From NCBI RefSeq assembly GCF_000009705.1, contig NC_003273.1, positions 1 through 32,000 on the forward strand: a stretch of 32,000 nucleotides of DNA. Direction: 5' to 3'. Source of the DNA: Nostoc sp. PCC 7120 = FACHB-418 (GTDB lineage: Bacteria > Cyanobacteriota > Cyanobacteriia > Cyanobacteriales > Nostocaceae). The notes beneath the pieces were generated by a model that was not told the origin of the DNA, made no database searches, and worked only from the letters and a program-made list of their open reading frames with translations. Positions within the stretch are counted from its first letter, which is position 1. Every line of letters starts with the position of its first letter. Below, piece after piece: positions 3,106 through 27,582 of the stretch. The position numbers and the translations under genes are program-made.

Positions 3106-3570
3106 TTAATCTCCGCCAAAAATCGCATCCAATTCAAGTGATGAAGCCTGACCCTGAACTATTGAAGCGGGTCTGATTGAATCAGCCGCTTTAGAGTCAA
3201 GCTCAGGTGACTCTAAAGCATTACTGTTGTAAGCTGGGGCATTGACCGTTACAACTGGTGCAGCCAACGCTGGCTGTGACACGACAAACTGCGGTTGTTC
3301 CACACCTAGAGCCAAACGCATATAACTACCGTGTTTATTCAAGACATCCTGTGCTTCCCAACAAGCCAAACGGATCTGCTCTGGCGTAAACGAACCACTC
3401 GAATATCGCGCCACAGGCAAGAAAGCAGCCACCAGAATATCTGCCACCTTGCGCTGTGCCTCATCCTTGGGCAGCGAGTTCAAGTAATTGACAACTTCCG
3501 CTAAAACATCCCCCTCATAAGGCTGAAGCCGCATAGTTAGAGACAAGCGTTTTTTCTTGCTAGGATTCAT
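3106..3570 (-). CDS. Putative ParR-like ribbon-helix-helix centromere-binding adaptor
   Basis: 154-aa ORF whose start overlaps the upstream stop (ATGA at 3567..3570). The N-terminus KKKRLSLTMRLQPYEGDVLAEVVNYLNSL has the basic-strand-then-helix layout of RHH proteins. Its position after an actin-like ATPase matches type II partition loci. Confidence 0.5.
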   Translation of the reverse strand: MNPSKKKRLSLTMRLQPYEGDVLAEVVNYLNSLPKDEAQRKVADILVAAFLPVARYSSGSFTPEQIRLACWEAQDVLNKHGSYMRLALGVEQPQFVVSQPALAAPVVTVNAPAYNSNALESPELDSKAADSIRPASIVQGQASSLELDAIFGGD

Positions 3571-4869: not shown

Positions 4870-5040
4870 GTGCAGATTTAGAGCTAGTTGGCACTATCTA
4901 AGTGCAGATATTGCACCCATTTGGCACAATCTGGCACTCGTGATTAACCTCGCATCATGACCCTAAATGCCGATTTAGGCTTACCAAATTGTGCCAACTT
5001 GCACTAAAAATGTGCTGAGTTGCTCCAGATTCGTGCCAAG
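4870..5040. promoter_or_regulatory. Phased array of T(T/G)GCAC / TGGCAC boxes; candidate centromere (parC-like) and/or promoter region
   Basis: Forward boxes: gtgcaga 4870, ttggcac 4888, gtgcaga 4902, ttgcac 4911, ttggcac 4921, ctggcac 4931, mostly 9-13 nt apart (one 18-nt gap). Inverted boxes: gtgccaa 4991 and 5033, plus ttgcac 4999. The array lies directly upstream of the minus-strand ATPase gene starting at 4835. Confidence 0.45.
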
Positions 5041-5243
5041 AGGTCGCTTTGTGGCTGGAGTGGGTGTTGTTACCGAAGAATTTCGAGTAGGGGGTATTAG
5101 TATGGAGGTGTACTCACTATACTTCCGCGCCCTGCGGGTGGGCTGCGCCCATCCTTCGCTACGCTCAGGACGCAGAAGCTACGTTCGCCCCTGCGGGGAG
5201 TTCGCACCCCATTGGCACAACTGTAAAATCCGAGAGTAAATCA

Positions 5244-6947
5244 ATGGTAGCTTTAGCGATTCTGCGCGTTGAAAAACTCAAATCTTTCGGCAATGTTGGC
5301 GGTAGCGAGAAGCATACTGCCCGTTTACAAGATACCCCAAATGCCGACACCACTAAAAAAAATATCAGACTGATTGGCATGGAGGATGGTAAGACGCTGG
5401 AAGATTTGGTCAAAACTAAGATTGCCACCGACACCAAGCACAAACCTCGCAAGGATGCCGTGCTGTGTAGCGAGATGTTCCTGTCGGCATCGCCCGAATA
5501 TTTCCGCCCCCATGACCCATCTCTTGCTGGTGAATGGAATGATGAGCGCATGGTACTGTTTGCCAAAGCCTCCATTACTTGGTTAAAGACCAACTACGGT
5601 GACAAGTGTGTCCGGGCTGAACTGCACTTGGATGAAGCTACTCCCCACATTCATGCTTACATTGTTCCCATCAACGATAAGACCAAGCTGCTAAGTCATA
5701 AGGAAATGTTTGGTGGTGATGGTCGTGTTGGCAGCATCAAGTTATCTAAGCTGCAAGATAGTTATGCCCAGGCACTCGCTCCTTTGGGTATTGAACGAGG
5801 GGTTAAGGGCAGTAAGGCCACCCACACCAAAGTAAAGGAGTATTACCAAGCCGTTAACAGCGAACCACTCACTGCCGTCTGGTCGAATCAGAAACTTGAA
5901 CCCCAACCGCTTGAATCCGCTACAAATTACGTTGCTCGGATTCAGAATGATGACCAATTCCACGCCATCAACCACCAACTTGCTGACCGTGCTTTCATGC
6001 TTGAGAAACTAGAACGGGCAGAGCAACGGGCAAGAGCCAGCGAGAAGGAACGACAACGGTTAGAAAAAGAAGTGCGATCGCTTGAATTGAAAACCCAACA
6101 ACTACGCGACTTGGAATTATCGGATGTCGCCTGGGAGTTGGGGCTTGATTACGAGCGTGAGCGCTGGAGAGGTCACGGTCACATCATTAATATAGATGGC
6201 TCAAAGTTTTATGACTTTTCACCCGACCAACAGAAGGGCGGGGGCGGTGCGATTGATTTGGTGATGCACGTTAATCAGTGCAATTTTCGGCAGGCGGTTG
6301 TCTGGTTACATGAGCGATTCGGGGAAGCTGGGGTAGAACGTGCGGCGATCGCTCATGTCAAGAACAGGGCGGCGGACATTATCCAGACCCAAGCGCGTCC
6401 TCAATTTACCCCACCCGTTGAAGATAGAAACAACTGGCCTGCCGTTGAACGTTACCTCACCCAACAACGGGGCATCCCCTCTGATTGTTTGCAAATGCTT
6501 CAAAACCTGGGGCTACTTTACGCTGATGACCAACAAAACGCTGTCTTTGTCATGCGGAATCTTGATGGTCAGCGTAACGGTGCATTCTTACGGGGAACTA
6601 GAGGGGAGAACAACAGTTTTAAAGGCTACTCTAAGGGAACCAAACGCCGTGATAGCTGGTTTTACTTCGGTTTGGGTGGTCAAGCAACCGATAAAGCATC
6701 TCATGTTCTGCTGTGTTCTTCTCCCATTGAAGCTATTTCCAGAGCCATGCTCGAATACTTTGTTAGGGGCAATGTGCCACCTGAGCGAACCCTGTACATG
6801 GCAGTCGATAACATCAACTCTTTGCCTGTCGAGCGATTGCAGAACGTTCCTCATATACTCGTGACTTTTGGTAAAGACCAATCAACTCATGCGGCCGCAC
6901 AGCGTGTCTTACAACTACTGCCACAGTCCCAACAAGTCTTATCCTAG
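5244..6947 (+). CDS. MobV-family relaxase fused to a primase-like (DUF3991/Toprim-like) domain; 3-prime end truncated by IS insertion
   Basis: N-terminal LRVEKLKSFGNVGGSEKHTAR (HxxR) and ELHLDEATPHIHAYIVP (HxDE..PHxH), the MobV/Mob_Pre signatures. A coiled-coil follows. Then GGGGAIDLVMHVNQCNFRQAVVWL and VLLCSSPIEAIS, resembling primase-type helper domains of conjugative relaxases. The stop codon TAG (6945..6947) lies inside the IS terminal repeat. Confidence 0.8.
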   Translation: MVALAILRVEKLKSFGNVGGSEKHTARLQDTPNADTTKKNIRLIGMEDGKTLEDLVKTKIATDTKHKPRKDAVLCSEMFLSASPEYFRPHDPSLAGEWNDERMVLFAKASITWLKTNYGDKCVRAELHLDEATPHIHAYIVPINDKTKLLSHKEMFGGDGRVGSIKLSKLQDSYAQALAPLGIERGVKGSKATHTKVKEYYQAVNSEPLTAVWSNQKLEPQPLESATNYVARIQNDDQFHAINHQLADRAFMLEKLERAEQRARASEKERQRLEKEVRSLELKTQQLRDLELSDVAWELGLDYERERWRGHGHIINIDGSKFYDFSPDQQKGGGGAIDLVMHVNQCNFRQAVVWLHERFGEAGVERAAIAHVKNRAADIIQTQARPQFTPPVEDRNNWPAVERYLTQQRGIPSDCLQMLQNLGLLYADDQQNAVFVMRNLDGQRNGAFLRGTRGENNSFKGYSKGTKRRDSWFYFGLGGQATDKASHVLLCSSPIEAISRAMLEYFVRGNVPPERTLYMAVDNINSLPVERLQNVPHILVTFGKDQSTHAAAQRVLQLLPQSQQVLS

Positions 6948-8731: not shown

Positions 8732-9508
8732 CTAAGATTTTTGAGAGCTTGACACTAAATTAGTAAATTCTCTCAAAATATTTTTATATCTTTGACCAGC
8801 TACCCCATAAAAATCATTATGGCTGGCGTTATCTACCCATAATTTCAACTTTGGTGACGGGGAAGCTGCATACAACTTTTGTGCATGAGTAAAAGGAATT
8901 ATCTCATCAGCTTGACCGTGCATAATTAATACTGGACAGTTCACCTTTTTGATTTTTTCTAAATTATTGAATTTATCAAATGGCAAAATTTTTATTGGTA
9001 CTACAACTTGAAAAGCCGAAGTAAAGGTACTTTCTATAATTAAACCTCCTACTGGCTGCCGAGCCGCCAAATCTACTGCTGAACCTCCTCCCACTGAACG
9101 TCCAAAAACAATAATATTCTTTGGTAGTATTTTTAAATCTTTGGTTAAATAGTTGTAAGCTGCATCAATATCTTGATAAGCGTTATTTTCCGTAGGTCTT
9201 CCTGCGCTTGTACCGTAACCCCGATAATCATAAGCCAACACATTGAACCCTAAGTCTCTTAATTGTTCTAGAAATTGTCTAATCTCGCCTAAATCTTCTG
9301 CATTCCCATGAGCATAAATAATTGTGTACTTAGCTGTAGGATTCACTAAATGAACTGCTGAAATTTTCGTTTCTCCCCCACTCTTGAGCTTCTTGATTTC
9401 TTGAGTATCAAGATAGCTAGATGGTTGAGGCAAGAAAATCATACTATCTGCTCGAAAATAAACATACACAGCCAAAAATAGATAAATAAAAATTATTGAG
9501 CTTAACAA
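8732..9508 (-). CDS. Alpha/beta hydrolase (serine hydrolase) with N-terminal membrane anchor
   Basis: 258 aa. Hydrophobic N-terminus, HGNAED, nucleophile elbow GRSVGGG (GxSxG), MHGQADEIIP and ASHNDF, consistent with a Ser-Asp-His triad. Confidence 0.8.
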   Translation of the reverse strand: MLSSIIFIYLFLAVYVYFRADSMIFLPQPSSYLDTQEIKKLKSGGETKISAVHLVNPTAKYTIIYAHGNAEDLGEIRQFLEQLRDLGFNVLAYDYRGYGTSAGRPTENNAYQDIDAAYNYLTKDLKILPKNIIVFGRSVGGGSAVDLAARQPVGGLIIESTFTSAFQVVVPIKILPFDKFNNLEKIKKVNCPVLIMHGQADEIIPFTHAQKLYAASPSPKLKLWVDNASHNDFYGVAGQRYKNILREFTNLVSSSQKS

Positions 9509-10683: not shown

Positions 10684-10929
10684 CTAACGCTCCTGTGGGG
10701 TCAACTCTTTCCAAACAGCCGATTTAAACTCACTCGTCCATTCTTCTGTCAGCGTGGCTATCATTTCCCAAGACTGATCCGCAATACACCCTCTAATCAA
10801 TTCCACATTGCCGAGTAGTTCCTCCTCTCTGGTTAATCTCAAGGTAGAACCAGAGGTGAAACGGGAGGTGGAACACTCTTCTATTACCTGTGGTGATTGA
10901 GTTTGAGGTTCAGAAACAATTTGTTCCAC
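10684..10929 (-). pseudogene. Remnant copy of the C-terminal domain of the 836-aa primase-helicase
   Basis: The 81-aa ORF aligns with the last ~90 aa of ORF 13526..16036 (EPQTQSPQVIEECST...IATLTEEWTSEFKSAVWKELTPQER). It has TAG where the full gene has CAG and lacks everything upstream. Confidence 0.75.
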
Positions 10930-11099
10930 CCCCTGCCCCTCTAAACTTTATTACCCATTCGGTTTGAGTCTTTTAAACCTTTTTTGTAGTACTAATGTAG
11001 TTATTTAGTAGTCTTTTTTGTTGGCTATTATTTTCTTTTTCAGTTTTGACCCAAAAAACGGGAAAAACTTTTTTGCGTACTGTGCGGAAACTCAAATTT

Positions 11100-13525: not shown

Positions 13526-16036
13526 TCATTCCAATGCCTTGAGTTGCTTCACTGCCTGACGCTCCTGTGGGGTCAACTCTTTCCAAACAGCCGATTTAAA
13601 CTCACTCGTCCATTCTTCTGTCAGCGTGGCAATCAAGCCCCAACATTGATCGGCAATAGATTCTCTAATTAGTGCCACATTACCCATAAGTTTCTGCTCA
13701 AAAGATAATTCGAGGGAAGAACCAGAGGTGAAACAGGGGGTAGAACACTCTTCTATTACCTGTGGTGATTGAGTTTGAGGCTCATCTACAGGTTGTTCCA
13801 CCCCCTGCCCCTCTAAACTTTTTTCATTTGCTTCTGTTGGTGTTGTTTCTTGTGGGGTTACGAATGGCGCTGCCGTTTGGGGCGCTATCCATTGGGCAGT
13901 TTCATTATTGCTATCAAAATTTGGAAAAGTTTGGGGGGAATTAGTGGAACAGGTGGAACACTCTGGCTCTAAGTCAGTTGTAACAAGGGCTTGGGGCTGT
14001 TCCACCTCCTGTTCCACCCCCCGTTCCACCTCCTGTTCCACCCCCCGTTCCACCTCCTGTTCCACCTCCTGTTGCGGTCGAACCCAAGGACGAATTAACC
14101 TACCGTTGACCCGTTTGCGATCGCCTCTTGTCCAGCCGTGAGAACGTAAGATAGCCGCTACACGGTTTTGTTCGGCTTTACTTTGCTTGGCTAACTCAAT
14201 CTTGAGTACATCGCTGAGGATTTCGCCGACGGATACTTCTTTTTGCAACTCAGCCCAAGCCATTACCGCCTCTTCCCATGTGTCTGTGCTTTGGTATTGT
14301 TTATTGGCTGCGTCTAACCATTCATCCTCAACCTCCGTCAGTCGCCATTGCTCACCATTGCGGTAAGCAGCGACAGCAGCAGCCCAGATTAAATCTCGTT
14401 CCTGCTGAAGCATTTTGATGGGTATTTTCTTAAACAAGACCTTAATTACCCAAAAGCGGCGTTCACCAGTGGGGTCATAGAGAAATTCATCTAGGTTGGT
14501 AGTGCCGACAAGAATGGATGGGCGAGGAAAATCCTCAATGTCAGTACCGTAGGGACGACGCATTGAGTCTTTCTTTCTCGACAGAAACGCCTTGAGTTGT
14601 GAAACATCTTTTTTCTTGTAGGAGTTCTCAAACTCGGCATATTCCAAAATCCAATACTGGCTGATTTTTAAAACCTCGTCTTTCTCTGTACCGTTGAGGT
14701 CATCTGTGAAAAATTCTTCCCCGGCTAGAATTTCCCAGAATGTGGATTTGAGTGATTTCTGCTTACCTTGGAGAATGGTAATTTCATCGTGTTTACACCC
14801 AGGCTCAAATGCCCTAGCTACAGCTGCAATTAAAGTGCGTTTCATCAGTGCTGCGTGTAGTGGGTCATTAGTGCCAAAGTAACGTTCGGCCAACTTATCT
14901 AACAAACTGACATCTACGTTGGGGTAACGCCTTTCGACTGACTGTAAATACTCAACTACTGGGCTGTATGAGTTTGCTAGAGCTAGTTCTAAGACAACAC
15001 TTTTAGCTTGTTCCTTGCTGATGTCAATATGAACATCAATCGCCACTTTTAAATCAATGCGATCAAGTGGTAGCCTTTTACCGTCTAACTCAACTTGCTT
15101 TTTGAGCATATTCCAGCGCAGGCGAGATCCCCAGACGGCACGGATAGCATTCAATTTTTGCTCCAGTTTACTTTCGGTTGGCCTGTCCCGTTCTGCCTCC
15201 AGTTCCAGAGTTTTATTAAGGGCATCAACTACGATTCGTCTATCCTCAATCGCTTGTAGGATGTCTTTGGTTGTCGCTCCTGAATCTATCCAATCTTGAA
15301 TATCTAATCCCCCATGTTTGGGTAAATGTGTCCAGTAAAAATCACTCGGTGGGGCATACAACCACTTAGCATCTGGGAAGTCAGAGTTAATATCCTCCAT
15401 GTGCTTTAGCCCTGGTTCGTCACGGTCGGGACAGAGAACTAGGTTAGCACCTTCTAAAGCACTTTGGTAGTTGCCGTATGAGCGATACTTGCCAGCACCG
15501 CCGATGTTGGTAGTGGCTGCTATGCCTCTGGCCCACAGGCTATCGGCTATGCGTTCACCCTCTACCACAAATACTGGTTTACCAGAGGCGATCGCTTGTC
15601 TTACGTCGCTGTAACGGTAGATGGTGACTTGTTGTTGATGGGAGCGTTTTAATTCAGCATTCAAATCTTTGGCTTTGGCCCAACGTTTACCGTCCCAATA
15701 TTCTTGAAAGACATCCTTATCTTTGACCTTACCAGGACGGATAATTGTCACCTTAATTAAGGGATTACCTTCTGTATTGGTGTAAACGTATTCTTCTTTA
15801 CCTTGGGGACGTGGCGATTTTTTAGCTGTGGCTGGTGCGTAGTATGGCTTGCCGTTGCGATCTCTCTTACTTGTCCTTTCCCACCCAAAGGCGGGTTCTG
15901 CGTCTCGGTTGCAGACTGTCAGTTCACCGATGGAGTAACACCAGTCTGGTTTAGAGCAGTGGGGGCATGGGCTAGTTTTGGTAACTTCTACTGGTTTATT
16001 GTTGGTAGCTGCGTCATTCAATACTTGTAACGACAT
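13526..16036 (-). CDS. Replicative primase-helicase: zinc ribbon, Toprim, VapE-like P-loop, repetitive acidic linker and C-terminal domain
   Basis: 836 aa with the strong RBS aaggagg 8-14 nt upstream. CPHCSKPDWC...VCNR; Toprim-like VFVVEGERIADSL and LVLCPDRDEPG; VapE-like ILQGKQKSLKSTFWEIL and VGTTN; then QQEVEQEVERGVEQEVERGVEQEVEQ. Confidence 0.8.
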   Translation of the reverse strand: MSLQVLNDAATNNKPVEVTKTSPCPHCSKPDWCYSIGELTVCNRDAEPAFGWERTSKRDRNGKPYYAPATAKKSPRPQGKEEYVYTNTEGNPLIKVTIIRPGKVKDKDVFQEYWDGKRWAKAKDLNAELKRSHQQQVTIYRYSDVRQAIASGKPVFVVEGERIADSLWARGIAATTNIGGAGKYRSYGNYQSALEGANLVLCPDRDEPGLKHMEDINSDFPDAKWLYAPPSDFYWTHLPKHGGLDIQDWIDSGATTKDILQAIEDRRIVVDALNKTLELEAERDRPTESKLEQKLNAIRAVWGSRLRWNMLKKQVELDGKRLPLDRIDLKVAIDVHIDISKEQAKSVVLELALANSYSPVVEYLQSVERRYPNVDVSLLDKLAERYFGTNDPLHAALMKRTLIAAVARAFEPGCKHDEITILQGKQKSLKSTFWEILAGEEFFTDDLNGTEKDEVLKISQYWILEYAEFENSYKKKDVSQLKAFLSRKKDSMRRPYGTDIEDFPRPSILVGTTNLDEFLYDPTGERRFWVIKVLFKKIPIKMLQQERDLIWAAAVAAYRNGEQWRLTEVEDEWLDAANKQYQSTDTWEEAVMAWAELQKEVSVGEILSDVLKIELAKQSKAEQNRVAAILRSHGWTRGDRKRVNGRLIRPWVRPQQEVEQEVERGVEQEVERGVEQEVEQPQALVTTDLEPECSTCSTNSPQTFPNFDSNNETAQWIAPQTAAPFVTPQETTPTEANEKSLEGQGVEQPVDEPQTQSPQVIEECSTPCFTSGSSLELSFEQKLMGNVALIRESIADQCWGLIATLTEEWTSEFKSAVWKELTPQERQAVKQLKALE
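13999..14070. repeat. Six tandem 12-nt units (gttccacctcct / gttccacccccc) inside the primase-helicase gene
   Basis: Read directly. In frame on the minus strand they encode alternating EVEQ / ERGV units. Confidence 0.9.
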
Positions 16037-17128: not shown

Positions 17129-17356
17129 TCACGCTTGGCGATCGCTTGCGTCCACTCTTTTATAAGCAGGGGGATATTTGGAAGGAAATTTAGCTCTTAT
17201 GGCCTGCTCAACAAGAAACGCTACAAGATTAGCTGTAGCTCTACCTTCTTCATCAGCCCATAATTGTAAGTCCTCATAAACTGCGTCAGGTAAAACAATA
17301 GTTGTTCTTTTGGTCATGTCGATGAAAGCTTCTGTGTTCATCGATTCTATCCTCAT
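17129..17356 (-). CDS. Ribbon-helix-helix (CopG/Arc/MetJ-type) DNA-binding protein
   Basis: TKRTTIVLPDAVYEDLQLWADEEGRATANLVAFLVEQAI is a textbook RHH strand-helix-helix. The true start is probably an internal Met (17341 or 17317). It is divergent from the second actin-like ATPase gene. Confidence 0.75.
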   Translation of the reverse strand: MRIESMNTEAFIDMTKRTTIVLPDAVYEDLQLWADEEGRATANLVAFLVEQAIRAKFPSKYPPAYKRVDASDRQA

Positions 17357-17377
17357 GTAGTAATTAACTTTGCTTAA

Positions 17378-17420
17378 TTCATGCTATCGCATTATTTATT
17401 CATGCGATTCTATGCTAACA
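17378..17420. promoter_or_regulatory. Candidate operator in the divergent promoter region
   Basis: ttcatgc occurs at 17378 and 17399, 21 bp (two helical turns) apart, and tatgcta occurs at 17411. The site lies between the RHH gene and the 17579 operon. Confidence 0.3.
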
Positions 17421-17578
17421 TACTATCATCAAGCCAAAAGCAGTCACCCAACAAAGGCAACAGAAGCCAGAAAGTGACGTTCAGGCTTGCCAAAAACTGG
17501 ATATGTGGATTTATGGCGATTGTGCCTCTAAATTCCCCAAAGTCAGAAATCTAAAGACTTTTACCAATAATCAGAACC

Positions 17579-18706
17579 ATGACAACCGCATACTTGAATG
17601 CCGAAAATTGGCTTGCTCAAGCCGACTTATTCGCCAATTCCGGGTTAACTACCATCACGGGAGGTAAAGACCCCGGTGCTGGGTATGGCAAGGCTATCTA
17701 TGGTGATTTTTCTATCATGATGCCAGCCGCATACTCATTAGTCCGTAACCGCAACATTCGCCATTACGAAACCATATCTAAAGATGGCTGCTGGGTGTGT
17801 TATGTGGACGGCGCGAGAAAGGACTTAAAAGATGTTCAATTCTTCTGGGGTAGTGCAGCGATCACACAACGCGACTACACCCTACTCCATGAGGACAAGT
17901 CCAAAAAAGCAGAACTGGCATTAGAAAGCATACTTGCAGACTTAGCAGTTCTGAATATTCCCGATGGGATGAGACTAGAGATTAGCTTGAGCAACCACAA
18001 TCCCCAACGCTGGGACAAAGAAATTAAGCGACGAGTGCAAGGTATTCACACCTTCCAACATAAACACCCCATCAATCAGCAAATTGTTACTAAAACGGTT
18101 GAGATTGTAGTTACAGGTGTTTACCGCGAAGGCTTTGGCAGTATCGCTTACTGTCTATTTGGTGAACCAATTCTCACACTTGAAGAATCAGAGGTGGCTA
18201 TCGCGCTTGATATCGGTTCATCGACTTGGTTAATTACCGTATTTAACGGCAATGGTGCAGTGATTGGCGAACATTTAATAGAGAATGGCTGCGGTGAATT
18301 GCACTCAATGATTGCCGAGGCATTAGACAAAAGAAATGACTCAGGAAGCCTAATATCCAAAGATGTCAAACATTCCCCTTCCTTAGTAAATAAAGGGATT
18401 TTAGAAGGCACTTTGACTTATGGAGGAAATCACTTAACAGGCAAGAAATTTGAATTGGAATATGCCCAGTATTTAGAGCAATGGTGGTCAAGCCAGATTG
18501 AGAAATTCGCCAACTTTGTCACCTCTAAGAATTACCTAGACCGTGCTAAATACTTGGTGGCTTGGGGTGGTGGAGTTTCCTTACCAGTAGTCGATGAGAA
18601 TCTAGCACAATTCGGCTTTATGGTCTTACCAAATCCGCAATTTATCAATGCAATGGGATTGAAGTTACTAACAGAAAGTATGACAGGAGTAGAAACAAGT
18701 GTCTGA
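17579..18706 (+). CDS. Actin-like ATPase (ParM/StbA-type), copy 2
   Basis: 375 aa. Phosphate-1-like GGKDPGAGYGKAIY, phosphate-2 IALDIGSSTWLITVF, adenosine motif LVAWGGGVSL. Confidence 0.75.
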   Translation: MTTAYLNAENWLAQADLFANSGLTTITGGKDPGAGYGKAIYGDFSIMMPAAYSLVRNRNIRHYETISKDGCWVCYVDGARKDLKDVQFFWGSAAITQRDYTLLHEDKSKKAELALESILADLAVLNIPDGMRLEISLSNHNPQRWDKEIKRRVQGIHTFQHKHPINQQIVTKTVEIVVTGVYREGFGSIAYCLFGEPILTLEESEVAIALDIGSSTWLITVFNGNGAVIGEHLIENGCGELHSMIAEALDKRNDSGSLISKDVKHSPSLVNKGILEGTLTYGGNHLTGKKFELEYAQYLEQWWSSQIEKFANFVTSKNYLDRAKYLVAWGGGVSLPVVDENLAQFGFMVLPNPQFINAMGLKLLTESMTGVETSV

Positions 18707-20043: not shown

Positions 20044-20715
20044 ATGGCGCGTAACTATGGAACTGCCAAACTCAAAAACCATATCTCTGGTAATGCCCCT
20101 GGTACTTTGGGAGCAATGGGCAAACTGTTTGACGTGTCGGCGGAGGATTTTAACAAGGCACTTCAAGGCGACCAAACGGTAATCACCCGAATTGCAGATA
20201 TGGCGCGACTGTCGGACACGTACATAGCCAATTTACCCAAAGCATTGGAGGCATACCGGAAAATTATCGAGACAACCGGGGATGTTAATCAAGCCTATGC
20301 CGAACTGGTGCAACTGACCCAGAAGCACGGAACGCAAACCTTGAAGGCTATCAATTCATCTAAACAGGGCGAACTGCGTTTCAAGAACGAATTGACCGGA
20401 ATGCAAGCCGAACACGTTAACGCCACGACTGCGGAGGCTACCCGACACGCTCAACGCTCATCCTTAATTCAGATAGCAGGGGCCACCGCCGACCTAATGG
20501 CGATCGCAAAATACGAGGCTGATTTAATCAAGGCATCTAACAAAGTCCCAGAGGCTCAAGATGCAGCAGATCGCGCCTATGAAACTGCGGTAACTAACGC
20601 ACTGTGGACTAACGGCAGTGAAGCGAAGACCGACCGCATACCCAAACCAAACTACTCCCGCACTGCTGGAATTAGTCGTGTAGGAAATTGGTTCCGCAAC
20701 TTTATGGGCATCTAA
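20044..20715 (+). CDS. Hypothetical helical protein (223 aa)
   Basis: Good RBS (aggag) 9 nt after the preceding stop. No transmembrane segments and no motif recognised. Confidence 0.5.
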   Translation: MARNYGTAKLKNHISGNAPGTLGAMGKLFDVSAEDFNKALQGDQTVITRIADMARLSDTYIANLPKALEAYRKIIETTGDVNQAYAELVQLTQKHGTQTLKAINSSKQGELRFKNELTGMQAEHVNATTAEATRHAQRSSLIQIAGATADLMAIAKYEADLIKASNKVPEAQDAADRAYETAVTNALWTNGSEAKTDRIPKPNYSRTAGISRVGNWFRNFMGI

Positions 20716-20726
20716 GCCACAAGTAA

Positions 20727-20755
20727 AAAGCCAGAGGATGAGAGACTCTGGCTTT
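20727..20755 (+). terminator. Intra-operon hairpin (attenuator or partial terminator)
   Basis: aaagccagag (20727..20736) pairs perfectly with ctctggcttt (20746..20755) around a 9-nt loop, just after the 223-aa ORF. Confidence 0.4.
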
Positions 20756-20788
20756 CATGCCCTTTTATAGGGTTAAGAAGGAGTAAAA

Positions 20789-21367
20789 ATGAATGATTTT
20801 GACATCCTGTTATCTCAATTTCACTCCAATAATGAACAGACTCCCTCTACCAATTGGGGTGAACAGCAACACACTTTGCCGAACCCGGAGGATGAAGATG
20901 GTGAAAGGCTAGAGCAATCAATTAGGGATGTCTTCAGCAATAAACAACTCCTCAACAAAGCTCTAGCCACATTTTTGGGCGTATTCACCGCTAACACTGG
21001 AGTGAGTTTACTAACGAGTTTATCCATTGGGGCGATCGCTTCTGGGACACTAGGCAGCATTGTACTGGGTTTATTTTTCGCCAACACCCTGACCAAAATT
21101 CAATATGACGGCAGAATCCACATTGGCAAAGACTTCATAGTGGCGACTGTTCAGACTGCAAGTGTAGGGGCTTCGCTGTGGATAGCCTTTGACGAGTATC
21201 GGGTTGTAAGGGAGGCGACTAATACAGGTAAGACACGGTTCTATGAGGAAGTTAGAAACTACGAAGTTAAACCAACTCCCCAACCTGAACCCCCTTGGTT
21301 GTTAATGGGGTTAGGTGCAGTGGGGTTGTTGCTATTGGCAGTAGTGCTAAAGGGGGCAAACCAATGA
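20789..21367 (+). CDS. Multi-pass membrane protein (192 aa)
   Basis: RBS aaggag. The acidic N-terminus is followed by hydrophobic helices: FLGVFTANTGVSLLTSL, IASGTLGSIVLGLFFANTL, VQTASVGASLWIAF, WLLMGLGAVGLLLLAVVL. Confidence 0.55.
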   Translation: MNDFDILLSQFHSNNEQTPSTNWGEQQHTLPNPEDEDGERLEQSIRDVFSNKQLLNKALATFLGVFTANTGVSLLTSLSIGAIASGTLGSIVLGLFFANTLTKIQYDGRIHIGKDFIVATVQTASVGASLWIAFDEYRVVREATNTGKTRFYEEVRNYEVKPTPQPEPPWLLMGLGAVGLLLLAVVLKGANQ

Positions 21368-23091
21368 AACACAAGCAATTCGAGTCATATACAAGTTCAG
21401 GGACAGCCAACAATATTACTGTAGGTGTGCTGGCAACCATCGGCTTAATCTGTGGGGCTAAATCATTCACTGGCACTCAAATTAGTTTGGTGGAATATTG
21501 TTTCATCCCCTCTACGCTGACCTTACCAGATAACCGTGCTAAATACTGCACACCAGATAAACGCTACATAATGCCGGAGTCTGAGTTTTATGCCGAAGCT
21601 TACGCACCAGCTAACCCTGAATTTCAACGTGATAATTTTCTGCCAACCAAAGCAACCAGACTAAGGATTATTCCACCCAGTAACCCGAATAAACCGCTTT
21701 GGGGTCTAGCCGCAGTTGTGACTACTGGTGGAGCTTTTGCATTGTCTAAGGCTAGGGAATGGCGATTGATGCAACTGCTACCCTCAATCAGAAATGAGCT
21801 AAAAGCCAACTGGTTGATCAGCAAAATGCGAGAAGGGCTAAGACTCCACAAAGAAAGCTACACCGCCCAACTAGACTACGAATTTCACCAATGGAGTGAA
21901 AATCGACGGGCAAGGGCAGCGCAGTTATCAAACATGACACCCCAAGAATTAGCCATATTTACCGAACAGGTCAGGTTAAGGGCTGAGGCTGAAGCACGAG
22001 CGCAACTGCAACAAGCAAGCGGACAGCCAAGAGGTGCATTGCCGGGGCAGTCGATTGAAGATATCACTAACCCATCAGATAAGGTGACGGGTGCTGACTC
22101 TACCCAGACGATTGCTCCCAAAGACAGTTGGGTACAAAACTTAGTCAAACAAACTGCCTTAATTTGGGGCAACCAAGGGGGTGGTAAAAGTTGGCTTGCC
22201 CGTTACGTTGTTAAACAGAAAAAACAGGCAGGCTATCGAGTTATCGTCCTTGACCCTGACAGTAACCGTGCAGAATGGCGAGGCGTTGAAAGTTATCACT
22301 CTTGGGACGAGATAGAGCAGCAGATCCGTAATTACGTTAAAGAACTGGAATCAAGATTAAAAATCTTTAATAACTCAACTATGAGTGAGGAGCAATGGCG
22401 GCAGAAACTTTGGACAGAGGGTAAAGCTTTATCTCTAATTTGTGAGGAAGCAACCACCTACGCTGACTTTATAAAAGATGCAGAATTATTGGAGAAATTC
22501 GGCAAGCTGGCATTAACTAAGAGCCGTAAACAAGAAATGCCTTTAACTGTGGTTGCTCACAACAATACCCAGACTTGTTTATTCGGAATAAAAGGCTTAC
22601 ATAATCTCGTTTCTAAGATGCTTCAGGTTGAATGTTTGGCTGAAGTAGATCCAGTTACACTACAGCCAAAATCTACAGGTAGAGCTAAGGTAAAACTCGA
22701 TAGTTCTAACGAATGGCTTGATGTTATTCTGCCGAGTTTGACAGCCAAAATATCTGATTTTAGTGACACAGTAACACCAGCATCTAATCCAATTCCACCC
22801 ATAGATAAAGCCACATTAGAACGCATTTATGAACTGGAATTTAATATCGGTGGCAAGGCTGGTGATACCCCCAATGAAAAAAATAAGCTATCACCAATGG
22901 CTCAAAAATTGTATGAATATCTCACCAGAACTGAACGAATAGAAGCTGATGTAAGAGAGTTCAAAGGCAATTTTAAAGTAAACGGTGAGAGATTCACTGT
23001 TGAGCAAATCAAGGGCTGGATGTATGAAATTGTCGGCGCATCTTTAGCAGACTGGATAGGCGAGGGTGTTATCAAGCTTAATCAAATTTGA
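21364..23091 (+). CDS. Membrane-anchored P-loop NTPase; candidate coupling protein or DNA translocase
   Basis: The start is taken at the ATG that overlaps the preceding stop (ATGA at 21364). Two N-terminal hydrophobic helices and a coiled-coil. Walker A IWGNQGGGKSWLARY, then RVIVLDPD and the Walker-B-like SLICEEATTY. The C-terminal ~70 aa (KLYEYLTRTERIEADVREF...) could be a winged helix; that is inference only. Confidence 0.6.
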   Translation: MKHKQFESYTSSGTANNITVGVLATIGLICGAKSFTGTQISLVEYCFIPSTLTLPDNRAKYCTPDKRYIMPESEFYAEAYAPANPEFQRDNFLPTKATRLRIIPPSNPNKPLWGLAAVVTTGGAFALSKAREWRLMQLLPSIRNELKANWLISKMREGLRLHKESYTAQLDYEFHQWSENRRARAAQLSNMTPQELAIFTEQVRLRAEAEARAQLQQASGQPRGALPGQSIEDITNPSDKVTGADSTQTIAPKDSWVQNLVKQTALIWGNQGGGKSWLARYVVKQKKQAGYRVIVLDPDSNRAEWRGVESYHSWDEIEQQIRNYVKELESRLKIFNNSTMSEEQWRQKLWTEGKALSLICEEATTYADFIKDAELLEKFGKLALTKSRKQEMPLTVVAHNNTQTCLFGIKGLHNLVSKMLQVECLAEVDPVTLQPKSTGRAKVKLDSSNEWLDVILPSLTAKISDFSDTVTPASNPIPPIDKATLERIYELEFNIGGKAGDTPNEKNKLSPMAQKLYEYLTRTERIEADVREFKGNFKVNGERFTVEQIKGWMYEIVGASLADWIGEGVIKLNQI

Positions 23092-23100
23092 CTGCTAATA

Positions 23101-23262
23101 GTGTCTTGTGTCTGCCCCCAAAAACGCCCTTTTTTCGCGGACACAGGACACCAGACACGGCAGACACCACAGCCCAAAACCCTTATACAGCATAGACACC
23201 AGCAGACAGCACACCAGACACCGCCCAGACACCAAGTGTCTAGTACGTGTCCGCTAGACACC
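23101..23262. repeat. Dense array of (A/G)GACAC(C) heptamer-like boxes, about 9 direct and 4 inverted
   Basis: Direct boxes at 23139, 23146, 23153, 23162, 23194, 23204 (degenerate agacag), 23216, 23227 and 23256. Inverted gtgtc(t/c) at 23101, 23108, 23236 and 23247. The array lies between the ATPase stop (23091) and the regulator start (23316). Confidence 0.9.
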
Positions 23263-23315
23263 AATAATAAATCAGTCAATAAACAGCCATTTATTATTAG
23301 AAGATTATCAACATC

Positions 23316-23987
23316 ATGCTGAGAATAGTAATTGTTGAACCAGAAACATTCACGCTCTTAGGCTTCAAAGCGGCTATTGAACAATCTCCAGATATAGAAG
23401 TTACAGGGTCAGCTAATTGTGGAAAGATAGGTTTTCAGTTAATTGAACAAGTAAATCCTGATGTTGTGTTAGTTGATTTACTATTACCCGATATGAGTGG
23501 TTTAGAACTTACTCGTTCAATTAAAAGAAAGACTAATAGTAAAGTTGTCATTTTTACTAATGAGACTCATTCAGACTTTATTAACTCGGCTTTTCGTCAT
23601 GGTGCTGATTCTTATATGCTCAAGAGTGCTGATGTAGAATTGATTGAACTAGCCATCAAGAGAGCTTACTTTTATGAATGTCTACTTGACCCAAAGCTGG
23701 CTAAAAAACTGTTAGAAAGCCTTTATCAAAATAGATATATTGACCCCACCTTCGTTGATAAAAACTTGATAGATCCGCCTACCGAGCGCCAAATACAAGT
23801 CCTGCGTTTACTGGCTCAGGGTTTAGTTTTTCAAGATATTGCCAAAGAAATGTTTCTGTCTGTTAGTACGGTCAAACAATATGCCAGTGATTTGTACAGT
23901 AAATGGCACGTCAAGAACCGTTATGAGGCGATAAAAAGAGGGGCGATGCTTGGTTATATCGACTATAACTTGATTGTGAATGAATGA
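23316..23987 (+). CDS. NarL/FixJ-family response regulator (receiver plus LuxR-type HTH)
   Basis: 223 aa. The receiver has VLVDLLLPDMSG, but VIVEPE replaces the usual DD pocket. C-terminal LTERQIQVLRLLAQGLVFQDIAKEMFLSVSTVKQYASDLYSKW. Confidence 0.8.
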   Translation: MLRIVIVEPETFTLLGFKAAIEQSPDIEVTGSANCGKIGFQLIEQVNPDVVLVDLLLPDMSGLELTRSIKRKTNSKVVIFTNETHSDFINSAFRHGADSYMLKSADVELIELAIKRAYFYECLLDPKLAKKLLESLYQNRYIDPTFVDKNLIDPPTERQIQVLRLLAQGLVFQDIAKEMFLSVSTVKQYASDLYSKWHVKNRYEAIKRGAMLGYIDYNLIVNE

Positions 23988-24165
23988 TGTATTGGGCATC
24001 ACCCCATTGAATTTAACCCGTGGACAGTGCTATGAACTGATCAACCAATTGCGAACTGAACTGAACCAAACGGAGATCATAGAACGCCTCTGGCAGTGTA
24101 ACAAGGGCGGTTCAGCCGCTTGTCAGGAAGCTTATGCACAGTTCAAGGAGATTACACAGCAGTAG
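23980..24165 (+). CDS. Hypothetical small protein (61 aa)
   Basis: The start overlaps the regulator stop by 8 nt. No motif recognised. Confidence 0.3.
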   Translation: MNDVLGITPLNLTRGQCYELINQLRTELNQTEIIERLWQCNKGGSAACQEAYAQFKEITQQ

Positions 24166-24205
24166 TATAACTTCATCACTTATTAGTCTCTACGCAGGTG
24201 TTCAG

Positions 24206-25048
24206 ATGAATCCAAGTAATAATCATTTTGAAAATTTCCAAAATGAGGAGAGAAGTACAATCCAAATAATTCAACTTGCTGGTGGTGAAGAAGATGAAGA
24301 GACGTATTGGAATTATGTTTGGATTTTACGTGCGCGTGGTGGCAATGAAGAATTTGTAGCCGCGTCAAAATTATGTGAAAGTCCTAGCCCAAAAGAAAGA
24401 ACTTTAGGGGTTGATATATTAGCAATGTTAGGAATGCCACAAAGAACTTTTCCGCAACAAAGTGTAGATATTCTTTTAAAATTATTATCAAGCGAAAGCA
24501 ACAGCAATGTGCTGTCTACAATTGGATTTGCCTTTGGATATCTAAAAGATTCGAGAGGTGTTTTACCATTAATTAATCTGAAAAATCATCCCGATGTAGA
24601 TGTGAGGATGGGCGTGGTTTTTGGTTTAATTTCCCAATCAAATGAATTGGCAATTCAAGCATTAATTGATTTATCTAGTGATGAATGTGAAGATATTAGA
24701 AATTGGGCAACTTTTGGTTTGGGTTCCCAAATAGAAACTGATACGCCAGCTATTCGAGATGCTTTATTTGCTCGCGTAATTTCCGAAACAGGACAAGAGG
24801 ACACTATCGCTGAAATTCGTGGAGAAGCATTACTGGGTTTAGCACTGAGAAAAGATGAGCGGGTAATTAATCCGCTCATCGCAGAACTTGAAAGCGGGTG
24901 CGTGGGTAGGCTGGCTGTAGAAGCGGCAAAAGAAATAGGAGATGCAAGACTTTATTCAGCGTTGATTAACTTACAACAGTGGTGGGATGTAGATATTAAG
25001 TTATTACTTGAGGCAATATCTAGCTGTAACTCTAACCCAAGTTGCTAG
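24206..25048 (+). CDS. HEAT-repeat protein (PBS-lyase HEAT-like repeats)
   Basis: Repeated xxVRxxAxxGLG-type units: DVDVRMGVVFGLI, CEDIRNWATFGLG, IAEIRGEALLGLA. The start is taken at the internal ATG (MNPSNN...). Confidence 0.65.
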   Translation: MNPSNNHFENFQNEERSTIQIIQLAGGEEDEETYWNYVWILRARGGNEEFVAASKLCESPSPKERTLGVDILAMLGMPQRTFPQQSVDILLKLLSSESNSNVLSTIGFAFGYLKDSRGVLPLINLKNHPDVDVRMGVVFGLISQSNELAIQALIDLSSDECEDIRNWATFGLGSQIETDTPAIRDALFARVISETGQEDTIAEIRGEALLGLALRKDERVINPLIAELESGCVGRLAVEAAKEIGDARLYSALINLQQWWDVDIKLLLEAISSCNSNPSC

Positions 25049-25341
25049 TCAGGTAAAAAGAAGAGGCAAATTTATGAGTCAATCTTGGGATGAGGGTTGT
25101 AGCGTTTGTGGTGTCGGGCTGAATGATAAGTATGCTTTAAGCGGGTGTCATTGCTGAGGGAAGAATAAGCTTTTTGGTCGCTTAGATTGTGATTGTGGGA
25201 AAATCCCGTCCATACCTCCCTCAACCCCACATAACCTGAATAGAGTTATATTCAATTATTCAACGAAACTGTCTAGTTTGCCGCTAGTATCAGCGACGCT
25301 ATATCTACGCCTTATAGTATCTCTTGATTACTTACCCGCAT

Positions 25342-25420
25342 TATAGTACATTAGTTCTAGTCAATACCTCCTTAGCTGACCAAAAATCAAACCCCGCTTT
25401 CTTGGTGGGGTTTATTTTTG
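25342..25420 (+). ncRNA. Candidate short RNA cassette C
   Basis: TATAGTACATTAGT at 25342; hairpin aaaccccgc...gtggggttt (~25389..25413), then atttttg. Confidence 0.3.
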
Positions 25421-25508
25421 CTCACGCACACTAACAAATCTGTTGTCACAGCAGCACTCATCATGCGGCCGTTTAAGATGAAATCAGACCGCGATTAAAA
25501 AAACAATT

Positions 25509-26519
25509 ATGGCATCTGCCTCACCCACGCCGAATCAGTCTACTAATATTGAGTTGCCGCTTGTCCAACCTCAACAGGAAAAAACTTTCTTGTCAACAGA
25601 GCTTTCAAAAACTGAGGTAGAGGTAGAGCCAGCAATACAAGCCCCAACGGATGATGAGCAAGTCAATCCTGAGACCGCATCACAAGTAGATGCTATTGAA
25701 GCAACAGGAGCGATATTTCAAGCGGTTGGCGTAATTACAGGAGAGGTAAATTTAAAGTCAGAGGGCATTAGCACTGTAACTATTGGTCGAAATCAATACC
25801 CGCTTTTGTACATTGGGCAGAAACTGAGAGTATTTCAGGCTCTCAAGAAAGAAATAGAAGCAACTGGCAATCGGACTTTTAGGCTGGTTGTTTATCCCAA
25901 GGCAATTCATTTCCCCAAAAAAGAGCAACCGCATCAAATTGCTTTTCAGTTAGTAGGCTTTGATAGAGGGCGATTCCAAGATGTAGTCTCAGGAGATTTA
26001 GAAGACCTAGAGTTTAAATTTTCAGGACTGTGGCAGTTTATCCCAGTCTGCCCAACTCCGTGCATCTCTGTGTTCCGCAACTTTACAACAGAAAGACTGG
26101 AATATATTAAGCAAGCCGAACCAGCGCGGAAGGTGAAATTCATGAAGTCCAGCCATTTACCGTTGCTGTGGAAGGATGCACCTGTTCGTCCCTTTAGATT
26201 TAATCCCAAAGTCCCGAAAGAACAGCTAGGACATCCAGTATTTGTCACCCTGAAGGCGAAATTTCTACCAGGGCGTAATGTATGGGGTTTTGTGGCCCTC
26301 ACCGCACCACCACAAGAAACTGCACCCAAATTTCTCAAAGCCTCTAAACAAGATAAAGCCACAGTCCAGCAACAGTCTAAAAAGAATAAACACCAGGGAC
26401 AGCGACCATTGAAAAAAGACCATCAAAGCGGCAATGGAGAGCCAAGCAATCCTCCATCTAAGCCAATACTCAAAAAAAAGCCGCTCCCAAGTGAGGGAGA
26501 AACTGAAAATCAAGCTTGA
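25509..26519 (+). CDS. Hypothetical protein (336 aa) with acidic N-terminus and lysine-rich C-terminal tail
   Basis: Long clean ORF. The acidic Glu/Gln/Pro-rich first ~60 aa are followed by a central globular-looking part and a basic tail (KKNKHQGQRPLKKDHQ...KPILKKKPLP). No family recognised. Confidence 0.55.
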   Translation: MASASPTPNQSTNIELPLVQPQQEKTFLSTELSKTEVEVEPAIQAPTDDEQVNPETASQVDAIEATGAIFQAVGVITGEVNLKSEGISTVTIGRNQYPLLYIGQKLRVFQALKKEIEATGNRTFRLVVYPKAIHFPKKEQPHQIAFQLVGFDRGRFQDVVSGDLEDLEFKFSGLWQFIPVCPTPCISVFRNFTTERLEYIKQAEPARKVKFMKSSHLPLLWKDAPVRPFRFNPKVPKEQLGHPVFVTLKAKFLPGRNVWGFVALTAPPQETAPKFLKASKQDKATVQQQSKKNKHQGQRPLKKDHQSGNGEPSNPPSKPILKKKPLPSEGETENQA

Positions 26520-26530
26520 GCTAAAAATGA

Positions 26531-26567
26531 TTGGCACTCTCATGTTTTTAAATAATGAAAGTGCCAA
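26531..26567 (+). terminator. Hairpin after the 336-aa ORF
   Basis: ttggcact (26531..26538) pairs with agtgccaa (26560..26567); the loop is long (21 nt) and aaagtttt follows. The stems reuse the TTGGCAC box seen at 4888..5040. Confidence 0.3.
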
Positions 26568-26868
26568 AAAGTTTTATCTGAAGGGTCTTTATAATGGCTG
26601 ACCCCGTTTGAATTGAGAAATGTTAAGTTCCATTTAGATGCTCATCGAATTAATGGCGTTTTAGATTATTTAATAATTTCTTTAGATTTGTATCTCGAAT
26701 TTCATTTGTTCTCTAACTAAGGAAAGATGATTTAACTTGATAGACCCATCTGGAGATGAATAGAAACAAGCAGACTCAAGCATTACAATGCTAACAATCG
26801 ATACAAGCTCTACTGCTGGTGAAAGAGAGCTTTGGTGTCTAATAGGAGCGAAAATTTGAGGTTGGGCA

Positions 26869-27582
26869 ATGAATAAAATCCGCGTAGTTTTAATTGAAGA
26901 TCATGACCTGACACGAATTGGTCTACGTGCTACTTTGCAAAAATTAGATGGCATTGAAGTCATTGGTGATGCTAGAGATGCTGCCTCTGGTCTGAAGTTG
27001 CTTAAATCTACTCAACCAGATATTGCGATTGTCGATGTGGGCTTGCCTGATATGAGCGGCATTGAGTTGACTCAACACTTTTTCAACTCAATGGACGCAC
27101 AACAAACCCCTCAAACCAAGATTTTAATTATGACCATGCAGGATAGTGAAGATACTGTTCTAGCAGCCTTCGCGGCGGGAGCAGATTCTTACTGCATGAA
27201 AGATGCCAGTACTGATAAATTAGTAGAGGCTTTGCATCTGACTGTTAATGGTAATTCCTGGATTGACCCAGTAATCGCTCGGATCGTTTTACAGCAGACC
27301 CAAAAAGCTACAACTGCTGCCAACGCTCGACCAGACACGGTAGCGATTAATGGCTTGTCACCAGAATATAGCCACATTGTAGAAACATATCCGCTCACTC
27401 GAAGAGAATTAGATGTCTTAAAGCTGATTGTAGATGGATGCTCTAACGCTGTGATTGCCGAAAAACTCTACGTTTCCGTAGGTACAGTTAAGACTCACGT
27501 TCGCAATATTCTCAATAAGTTATGTGTTAGTGACCGGACTCAGATAGCAGTTCGTGCTTTACGAGCCGGATTAGTTGCTTAA
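26869..27582 (+). CDS. NarL/FixJ-family response regulator (receiver plus LuxR-type HTH)
   Basis: 237 aa. VVLIEDHDL, IAIVDVGLPDMSG, ILIMTMQD, GADSYCMKD. C-terminal LTRRELDVLKLIVDGCSNAVIAEKLYVSVGTVKTHVRNILNKL. Confidence 0.85.
   Translation: MNKIRVVLIEDHDLTRIGLRATLQKLDGIEVIGDARDAASGLKLLKSTQPDIAIVDVGLPDMSGIELTQHFFNSMDAQQTPQTKILIMTMQDSEDTVLAAFAAGADSYCMKDASTDKLVEALHLTVNGNSWIDPVIARIVLQQTQKATTAANARPDTVAINGLSPEYSHIVETYPLTRRELDVLKLIVDGCSNAVIAEKLYVSVGTVKTHVRNILNKLCVSDRTQIAVRALRAGLVA

Follow-up and report, generated by a model that had tools for sequence, protein, structure and literature searches.

What reads a dense field of short repeats that directly follows a membrane ATPase gene on a cyanobacterial plasmid? 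The 32,000-nt stretch of Nostoc sp. PCC 7120 DNA analyzed here (contig NC_003273.1, positions 1 to 32,000; hereafter the window) has a G+C content of about 41% and belongs to a Nostocales plasmid, and at 23101–23262 it carries an array of AGACACC-type boxes between the gene of a membrane-anchored P-loop ATPase and that of a LuxR/NarL-type response regulator (RR). A preliminary description of the stretch had offered several explanations: a site like the clt locus of actinomycete plasmids, read by a C-terminal winged helix of the ATPase, a centromere-like array, or the operator field of a NarL-type regulator. Computed here are the array and its statistics, the folds of the ATPase and of its C-terminal winged-helix (WH) domain, and a strict co-variation of the boxes with that domain. 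We consider the array to be probably the cis recognition and loading site of the ATPase encoded upstream, read by its WH domain.

As read from the sequence, the array holds 12 exact GACAC/GTGTC pentamers and one degenerate copy, and the earlier estimate of about 13 boxes thus stands. Eight exact direct boxes (GACAC, starting at 23140, 23147, 23154, 23163, 23195, 23217, 23228, and 23257, the first three in 7-bp register) and the degenerate one (GACAG at 23205, where most homologues read GACAC) correspond to the nine or so direct copies described before, and the four inverted boxes (GTGTC, starting at 23101, 23108, 23236, and 23247) lie at the array edges, also as described. The full heptamer RGACACC is present in six copies. 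The array starts 10 nt past the ATPase stop codon (23089–23091) and ends 54 nt short of the RR start (23316), distances given previously as 10 and about 50 nt. Its parts are as follows.

23101–23112, minus strand: left pair of inverted boxes, GTGTCttGTGTC, 10 nt past the ATPase stop codon
23113–23139, no strand: conserved spacer, TGCCCCCAAAAACGCCCTTTTTTCGCG, with most columns at least 90% conserved among 42 distinct type-A arrays
23140–23168, plus strand: first direct cluster of four boxes (starts 23140, 23147, 23154, and 23163; spacing 7, 7, and 9)
23180–23194, no strand: central conserved element, CCCTTATACAGCATA, a small imperfect dyad separating the two box clusters
23195–23232, plus strand: second direct cluster of four boxes (starts 23195, 23205 with the degenerate GACAG, 23217, and 23228; spacing 10–12)
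23236–23262, no strand: right array end, read from the sequence, with the inverted boxes 23236 and 23247 and the last direct AGACACC at 23256–23262

Together with the box at 23228, those of the right end make GACAC-N3-GTGTC and GTGTC-N5-GACAC dyads. The pentamer occurs 43 times in the window, 12 times within the 162 bp of the array and 31 times in the other 31.8 kb; as 0.16 copies are expected per 162 bp, the Poisson probability of 12 is 4e-19, and the densest 162-bp segment in 200 first-order Markov simulations held at most four. Made within the window, the frequency check suggested in the preliminary description speaks for a true concentration of the motif.

Relatives of the ATPase were scanned for in one genome per species, which gave 80 loci; two plasmid records and seven contigs fetched by exact-protein look-up bring the survey to about 90. 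In every scanned locus that extends beyond the ATPase stop codon, an array begins right there or closely behind it. Among the 42 distinct arrays of the window's type (type A), box-core columns are 96% conserved versus 83% in the remaining array columns (Mann–Whitney P = 2e-9); the cores are kept, whereas spacers differ among arrays and some arrays lack a single box or base. This pattern of core conservation with box-sized and single-base indels fits protein-binding sites on duplex DNA and speaks against the status as genes of both open reading frames (ORFs) predicted across the array (23082–23279 on the minus strand and 23101–23322 on the plus strand), which had been taken for artefacts from the start. 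The comparison with homologous plasmids, also proposed at that stage, finds an array in about 90 loci. The array is a real, conserved, and functional feature, the biological role of which we infer below.

The boxes come in at least five versions, each of which is tied to one WH variant. Type A, AGACAC(C), is found at 43 loci and type B, (C/T)ACGGCA, at 36, including the two plasmid records; type C, (T)AGACAG, occurs at the loci L030, L086 (protein P0050), and L087 (P0053), type D, ACC(C/T)GACA(A/G), in a Coleofasciculus relative (L083), and type E, CCTCATAA, in a metagenomic relative (L088). In their common layout, arrays of types A, B, C, and E open on the left with inverted copies, which type D has there too, and continue with two direct clusters separated by a central dyad. 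Between types A and B the homology can be followed position by position: two inverted copies after the stop (in type B TGCCGtacTGCCG), an A5..GCCC..T5 spacer (in type B aAAAAgGGCTTTTatGGG), three or four direct copies in roughly 7-bp register, the central element (CCCTTATACAG in type A and CCCTGTATAGG in type B, the latter at about 8906–8916 of L002), about four direct copies at 10–12 bp spacing, and a common AT-rich segment. As the two types are positionally homologous with different boxes, about 12 sites must have been replaced in concert with the scaffold kept. The central dyad has counterparts in type C (CCTTGTACAGCAAGG, L087 3323–3345) and type E (CCTTGCAGCAAG, L088 1887–1900), and is thus shared by four of the five types regardless of box sequence; no clear counterpart was found in type D (L083). 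It may be the site of a second conserved factor, or a processing site.

Outside the arrays, neither avoidance of the own motif nor KOPS-like dispersal was seen among type-A and type-B loci (odds ratio 0.8, P = 0.16). GACACC occurs 2.8 times per 10 kb in type-A and 2.9 times in type-B loci, ACGGCA 4.2 and 3.6 times, respectively, and there is a mild same-strand excess of the motifs (97:55 and 95:66).

Several loci show peculiarities of their own. Type-C arrays run into the last ATPase codons at L086 and L087, where the GACAG repeats enter the reading frame (3270–3297 and 3290–3324, respectively) and a protein tail, ...NQTDGQNGQN, is encoded by the array. At L030, four tandem copies of an 11-nt unit, TCAATATTTCG, lie at 9108–9150, about 300 nt downstream of the type-C array. 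A second, truncated WH-coding tail with its own type-A array is found at 9780–9990 of L018, 1.1 kb past the first, and an apparent third orphan array (L043, 14459–14549) turned out to be a pentapeptide-repeat gene. Many Nostoc strains carry several copies of the module of ATPase gene and array, and Nostoc PCC 7120 has one (P0012). Three or four modules of the same array type are present in each of the single strains FACHB-892, FACHB-393, FACHB-838, and FACHB-3891, those of Nostoc sp. FACHB-892 being four of type B, and two type-B modules (L045 and L065) share one 63-kb contig, NZ_JADEWI010000041.1, of LEGE 06077.

The protein encoded directly upstream of the array is described by the following features.

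21364–23091, plus strand: membrane-anchored P-loop ATPase of 575 aa, predicted to be FtsK/TcpA-like (ORF, translation, AlphaFold2, Foldseek)
22882–23088, plus strand: predicted C-terminal WH domain, residues 507–575 (AlphaFold2, pLDDT 83–93)
22960–22986, plus strand: codons of residues 533–541 (FKGNFKVNG) in the a2–a3 loop, the segment that tracks GACAC versus GACAG

Hydrophobic helices lie at about residues 18–32 and 112–127 and long coiled-coil helices at 110–219; the Walker A motif GNQGGGKS occupies residues 269–276, with G272, G274, K275, and S276 invariant among 50 homologues, and a Walker B-like LICEE occupies 358–362. An AlphaFold2 model built from 50 homologues shows, from the N to the C terminus, a hydrophobic helix, a small domain with two invariant cysteines, a second hydrophobic helix, the coiled-coil helices, a disordered linker, a compact P-loop domain (pLDDT about 90), a second linker, and a C-terminal domain of the order a1-b1-a2-a3-b2-b3. 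In Foldseek searches of the PDB, the motor of about 200 residues is matched best by TcpA of pCW3 (6o1x, E = 7e-7) and the FtsK motor (2ius and 6t8b, E about 3e-6), then by EccC, with the leading TcpA/FtsK matches spanning E = 7e-7 to 1e-5; an FtsK/TcpA-like fold is thus predicted for it. The last 70 or so residues are predicted to fold as a winged helix, with a1 at 511–522, b1 at 527–529, a2 at 530–533, the a2–a3 loop at 534–545, a3 at 546–558, and the wing at 562–572. The pLDDT of this C-terminal domain is 83–88 in the full model and about 90 across the fold when the C-terminal 95 residues are modeled alone, and all identifiable top Foldseek matches of the isolated domain are winged helices (those of MCM and Vps25, ArsR/SrnR, BlaI/MecI, Fur, E2F, and FtsK gamma), FtsK gamma (2j5p) with a TM score of 0.63 normalized to the target.

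Which of the neighboring proteins does the box sequence follow? Each neighborhood protein of the window was compared with every locus. The last 95 residues of the ATPase, which include the WH domain, are 84–99% identical to the window's in all 43 type-A loci, whereas the motor there ranges from 36% to 93%. Type-B WH domains are 28–43% identical to the window's where detectable; they are still homologous, as a profile–profile alignment passes through them, with a two-residue deletion in the a2–a3 loop. The N-terminal 285 residues of the window ATPase and the upstream proteins o223 and o192 behave differently, as type-B loci have counterparts with 63–94% identity and most type-A loci either none or ones of about 25%; this type-B-like set beside a type-A array marks the window, L003, and L004 as recombinants. 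Both array types are found with each of two ParM types, one about 78% and the other about 26% identical to the window's, and the small ORF that follows ParM shows about 62% identity next to either array type. Rep is 87–89% identical with both array types (few loci) and the RHH protein 92–96%. The RR, its helix-turn-helix (HTH) half included, is 85–94% (about 90%) identical beside AGACACC and ACGGCA arrays, and at many array loci no RR is detectable (e.g., L007, L012, L019–L021, L025, and L027). Judged from these sequence comparisons, the box motif co-varies strictly with the WH domain and not with the motor, the N-terminal module, o223, o192, ParM, the post-ParM ORF, the RHH protein, Rep, or the RR. 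At L030 a window-like motor (82–89% identical) carries a WH domain with 47% identity, and the boxes read (T)AGACAG; at L051, a Calothrix relative, the ATPase ends in an unrelated helical tail that is no winged helix, and no array is present. In a divergent lineage, identity at third codon positions is about 0.8 in the WH domain versus about 0.44 in the motor, indicating that the segment of WH domain and array is younger than the motor there and hence was exchanged as a cassette.

The ATPase as a whole is a three-part mosaic (window 20044–22218 compared with L003–L082), in which the N-terminal 285 residues co-vary with the upstream o223 and the membrane protein o192, independently of motor and WH domain. 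This suggests that the N-terminal part may be a separate protein–protein interaction module.

The specificity could be narrowed further with natural variants of the WH domain, for two of which (P0049 and P0045) the array was predicted ahead of reading their DNA. P0089 (L085, with a B-like motor) and P0049 (L090, with an A-like motor) have a window-like a1, a3, and wing, and at 533–541 read the C-like QPSFKVKG versus FKGNFKVNG in the window; both stand beside GACAG arrays. Conversely, P0045 (L091) combines FKGNFKVAG with a variant a3 and has a GACAC array. The two independent natural chimeras P0089 and P0049 map the choice between GACAC and GACAG to residues 533–541. Their array type departs from the coding DNA that adjoins the array, which is the main argument for an association beyond pure linkage. 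At L090, an insertion of about 190 nt with its own short repeats (gattgaag, gattgcag, and caatct) and a GC hairpin lies between the ATPase stop and the array (2995–3180); this module is on a 718-kb scaffold and so is either chromosomal or on a megaplasmid.

We thus favor a docking site of the ATPase. The WH domains of an oligomeric motor would bind the 7-bp AGACACC boxes, about nine direct and four inverted in two clusters around a conserved dyad, and this multivalent binding would place the membrane-bound motor on a single spot of the plasmid. From there the motor would pump plasmid DNA, as TraB does from clt in Streptomyces plasmids and FtsK-gamma from KOPS, most likely for cell-to-cell transfer or mobilization, and the WH domain and array together would form an exchangeable specificity cassette. 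Physical binding, oligomerization, the translocated substrate (double-stranded DNA or a relaxase-bound strand), and the biological purpose are what we infer; the predicted FtsK/TcpA-like motor, the WH fold, and the co-variation of motif and WH domain agree with the clt-like model of the preliminary description.

A number of observations weigh against this docking site or limit it. No curated FtsK, TraB, TcpA, or VirD4 family includes the ATPase at the sequence level, where every match to them stays below cut-off. Such sub-threshold matches are to AAA_10, DUF87/HerA, SXT_TraD (TIGR03743, 19 bits with a cut-off of 366), TrwB, and VirB4-like P-loops; PF01580 (TraB/FtsK_SpoIIIE) does not match the window ATPase and reaches E = 0.025, below cut-off, with the relative P0079, and neither Pfam T4SS-DNA_transf nor TraG matches. 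Searches of the PDB with the single sequence and with a profile gave marginal P-loop matches at most, that to TrwB being confined to the P-loop (E = 0.023) and that to TcpA reaching E = 0.32, and among PHROGs the match is to a terminase-type (packaging) ATPase (E = 3e-7). The Foldseek matches of the isolated WH domain are individually nonsignificant (E ≥ 0.08). As WH codons and array adjoin, linkage could in principle account for most of the co-variation; just two observations go further, the pair of chimeras and the replacement of all boxes in concert. The determinant mapped by the chimeras lies in the a2–a3 loop and not in the canonical recognition helix. L016, a type-A plasmid, carries at 10900–11020 an orphan type-B array without the left inverted pair and without an adjoining ATPase, upstream of a second regulator-like gene. 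The conserved spacer and the central dyad show that the element holds more than WH boxes, and they may bind another factor. Finally, given a MobV relaxase in the window and a PF03432 relaxase in the distant relative L083, a relaxase-free mechanism of the TraB kind is not implied.

The alternatives draw on the plasmid around the module. A plasmid-encoded protein of Anabaena sp. FACHB-709 matches the ATPase with 100% identity, and 41 Nostoc, Tolypothrix, and Microchaete plasmids in PLSDB match the region at 77–87% identity, 28 of them typed as mobilizable and 13 as non-mobilizable. Besides an IS66-like transposase, the window contains the following features.

5244–6947: MobV relaxase with a DUF3991/Toprim part
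13526–16036, minus strand: Rep of the VapE/CyRepA1 type
17129–17356, minus strand: RHH_5 (CopG-like) protein (Pfam E = 6e-20)
17579–18706, plus strand: ParM/ALP gene, which opens the operon
23263–23298, no strand: AT-rich perfect palindrome AATAATAAAT-N16-ATTTATTATT, outside the array and 18 nt upstream of the RR start
23316–23987, plus strand: LuxR/NarL-type RR gene (Pfam Response_reg and GerE)

The operon on the plus strand runs from ParM/ALP through small ORFs, among them o134, o223, and o192 (the last with two hydrophobic segments), to the ATPase as its last gene; 3' of the array follow the RR, a HEAT-repeat protein, and a second regulator. No matches to Pfam, NCBIfam, or PHROGs were obtained for o134, o223, o192, o87, o88, and o241, PADLOC assigned no defense-system membership, and scans for sigma-70 promoters and intrinsic terminators found none in 22800–23600. 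The palindrome is kept beside both array types whenever the RR gene follows and is a likelier candidate than the array for the operator or promoter of that gene. In the 400 bp directly upstream of mobV, 5 of the window's 11 TTGGCAC heptamers (three direct and two inverted) and a CTGGCAC lie at 4888–5218, a candidate oriT or relaxosome-binding region; they were noticed in a search for inverted repeats upstream of mobV, which found none. Short direct repeats (CGATTCTAT.. and TTATTCATGC.., at 17342–17425) lie between the RHH_5 gene and parM, and within 17129–17578 the partition genes may have their parC or operator. On the related plasmid pNPM5 (L089), which is typed as non-mobilizable and has no annotated relaxase, a run of cell-wall enzyme genes extends over 22217–27302, with an SH3-domain protein, an M15 peptidase, a family-10 glycosylhydrolase, a weak GH25-like protein, and a peptidoglycan-binding protein.

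One alternative would make the array part of an origin of transfer (oriT), with the ATPase in the role of type IV coupling protein. The relaxosome would then assemble on the boxes, or on the central dyad as nic region, and an accessory protein, not the WH domain, may be what binds the boxes. We regard this as rather unlikely, although it would account for the MobV relaxase in the window, for the PF03432 relaxase and NikA-like protein 2 kb from the array at L083, for the many relatives typed as mobilizable, for the small dyad at the array center, for the best structural match being a coupling protein (TcpA), and for the name given by NCBI to the type-B proteins, [quoted passage not shown] The module is found, however, with different relaxase families and on the plasmids typed as non-mobilizable, such as pNPM5, and its central dyad is common to plasmids with unrelated relaxases; the MobV gene lies 16 kb away with TTGGCAC boxes of its own, and the motif tracks the WH domain and no other protein within 7 kb. 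Wherever the WH domain is the reader, the oriT overlaps with the docking site favored here. A parC-like centromere, linked to ParM filaments by a ParR-like adaptor or by the membrane ATPase itself, seems improbable to us. A ParM/ALP gene does head a conserved operon ending in the ATPase gene in Nostocales and Coleofasciculus, and two direct-repeat clusters around a central element recall parC of R1, yet both ParM types and a similar post-ParM ORF accompany both arrays, and 4.4 kb separate the parM stop from the array downstream, with other short repeats and the RHH gene directly upstream of parM. The coexistence of same-type modules in one strain, and even on one contig, would be expected to cause partition incompatibility but would be harmless for a transfer site, and the centromere-like option of the preliminary description is weakened accordingly.

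Still less weight falls on co-variation by genetic linkage only, with the boxes bound by another plasmid or host factor or serving as iterons of the CyRepA1 replicon, which we hold to be quite improbable. The array begins 10 nt past the WH codons, so that crossovers in between would be rare, the third codon positions show a recent exchange of WH domain and array between motor lineages, and L016 has its orphan array; but the array type of the two chimeras goes with a segment inside the WH domain, although it is the a3 and wing codons that adjoin the array, all boxes were replaced in concert with the layout kept, the array is absent where the WH domain was replaced (L051), and no other DNA-binding protein within 7 kb co-varies. 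As for iterons, Rep is nearly the same with both array types, the array is 7 kb from rep, and the minimal replicon of CyRepA2 is the rep region itself (PMC10079941). That the array is the operator field of the adjoining RR, as had also been suggested, is contradicted by the comparisons and very improbable: it lies upstream of the RR gene with three boxes in 7-bp register, and the orphan type-B array of L016 also precedes an RR-like gene, but the same RR stands beside both array types, many array loci lack a detectable RR, and the separate palindrome is the better candidate. Action as RNA at the end of the ATPase transcript, be it as structure of the 3' untranslated region, terminator, or protein sponge, is the least credible of all. 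The left inverted pair could pair with the first direct boxes (15 nt, 87% complementary, with a 21-nt loop), and L006 carries the same substitution in both arms (GGTGAGGA / TCCTCACC); against this, no terminator-like site and no T-run past the stem are present, Rfam gave no match in the array (at E ≤ 1, two chance matches outside it), and boxes in both orientations and as dyads fit duplex DNA sites. We rejected a hairpin or terminator at the left inverted repeat since the distance between the arms changes (7 versus 8 nt in L020 and type B) and L070 and L077 carry the substitution of L006 in one arm only.

What would the docking site mean for these hosts? Plasmid transfer in cyanobacteria is almost unstudied; only a computationally defined MPF-C type is known and functional work is lacking (PMC12282955, a 2025 review), and our literature searches found no description of a TraB/clt-like system in cyanobacteria. 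One further step, which we think doubtful, is that filamentous cyanobacteria have a Streptomyces-like spreading system, in which a single translocase would pump unprocessed double-stranded DNA without relaxase or type IV secretion system between neighboring cells of a filament or between filaments. The translocase would dock through its WH domain on the clt-like array, the small membrane proteins o192 and o223 would act as Spd proteins, and the swapping of WH and array cassettes between plasmids would change or share transfer specificity. If the proposal holds, plasmids in Nostoc and Anabaena, model and symbiotic strains, could be moved or tracked by means of a concrete cis site and protein, and multicellular bacteria may have a second, independent example of plasmid transfer driven by a translocase. 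The proposal would also offer a natural series of at least five pairs of winged helix and 7-mer, with a mapped 9-residue determinant, for the evolution of DNA-recognition specificity, and could supply orthogonal "address tags" for cyanobacterial vectors.

Among known systems, the heptamer operators of NarL/LuxR regulators are like the array in their 7-bp unit and in the adjoining NarL-family gene, but differ in that the module's motif is independent of the regulator's sequence and presence; the NarL heptamer is TACYYMT, unlike the motif of the array. ParR/parC of R1 shares two direct-repeat clusters around a central element and a ParM homologue in the same operon, and differs in that the module array lies at the far operon end, does not co-vary with ParM or the post-ParM protein, and coexists with arrays of its type in one strain. 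FtsK gamma/KOPS and SpoIIIE/SRS have, like the module, an FtsK-fold motor with a C-terminal winged helix, and short oriented motifs direct the FtsK motor. KOPS and SRS, however, are polar and dispersed over the chromosome, whereas the module motif is concentrated in one 160-bp array and is elsewhere neither enriched nor avoided, with a like frequency in loci of either type; the module is also plasmid-borne and its motor much smaller. TcpA of Clostridium perfringens pCW3 (with ICEBs1 ConQ and Tn916 Orf21) gives the best fold match to the motor, has N-terminal transmembrane helices, is plasmid-encoded, and works with a relaxase, which fits the MobV gene of the window; to our knowledge it has neither a C-terminal winged helix nor a cognate repeat array, and no VirB4-like gene was found among the window ORFs scanned.

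The TraB/clt systems of the Streptomyces plasmids pSVH1, pIJ101, and pSG5 combine, like the module, a plasmid-encoded, membrane-associated FtsK-like ATPase that has a C-terminal DNA-recognition domain with a cis locus of short direct repeats, and both occur in multicellular, filamentous hosts. The clt repeats are located at the end of the gene for their ATPase or close to it, and their motifs are plasmid-specific. Direct 8-bp repeats in clt regions are recognized by the cognate TraB, whose C terminus does so (PMC4447253); TraB homologues have been reported only in Actinobacteria, and TcpA homologues only in Firmicutes (PMC3548315). The module differs in its 7-bp boxes with inverted copies, conserved central dyad, and spacer, in a gene that closes a ParM-led operon, in the relaxase carried by many of its plasmids, the window's included, and in an ATPase without detectable sequence membership; transfer of double-stranded DNA by the module is hypothetical. 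With these differences, the module is best read as a cyanobacterial variant of the theme of an FtsK-family translocase with its cognate repeat locus.

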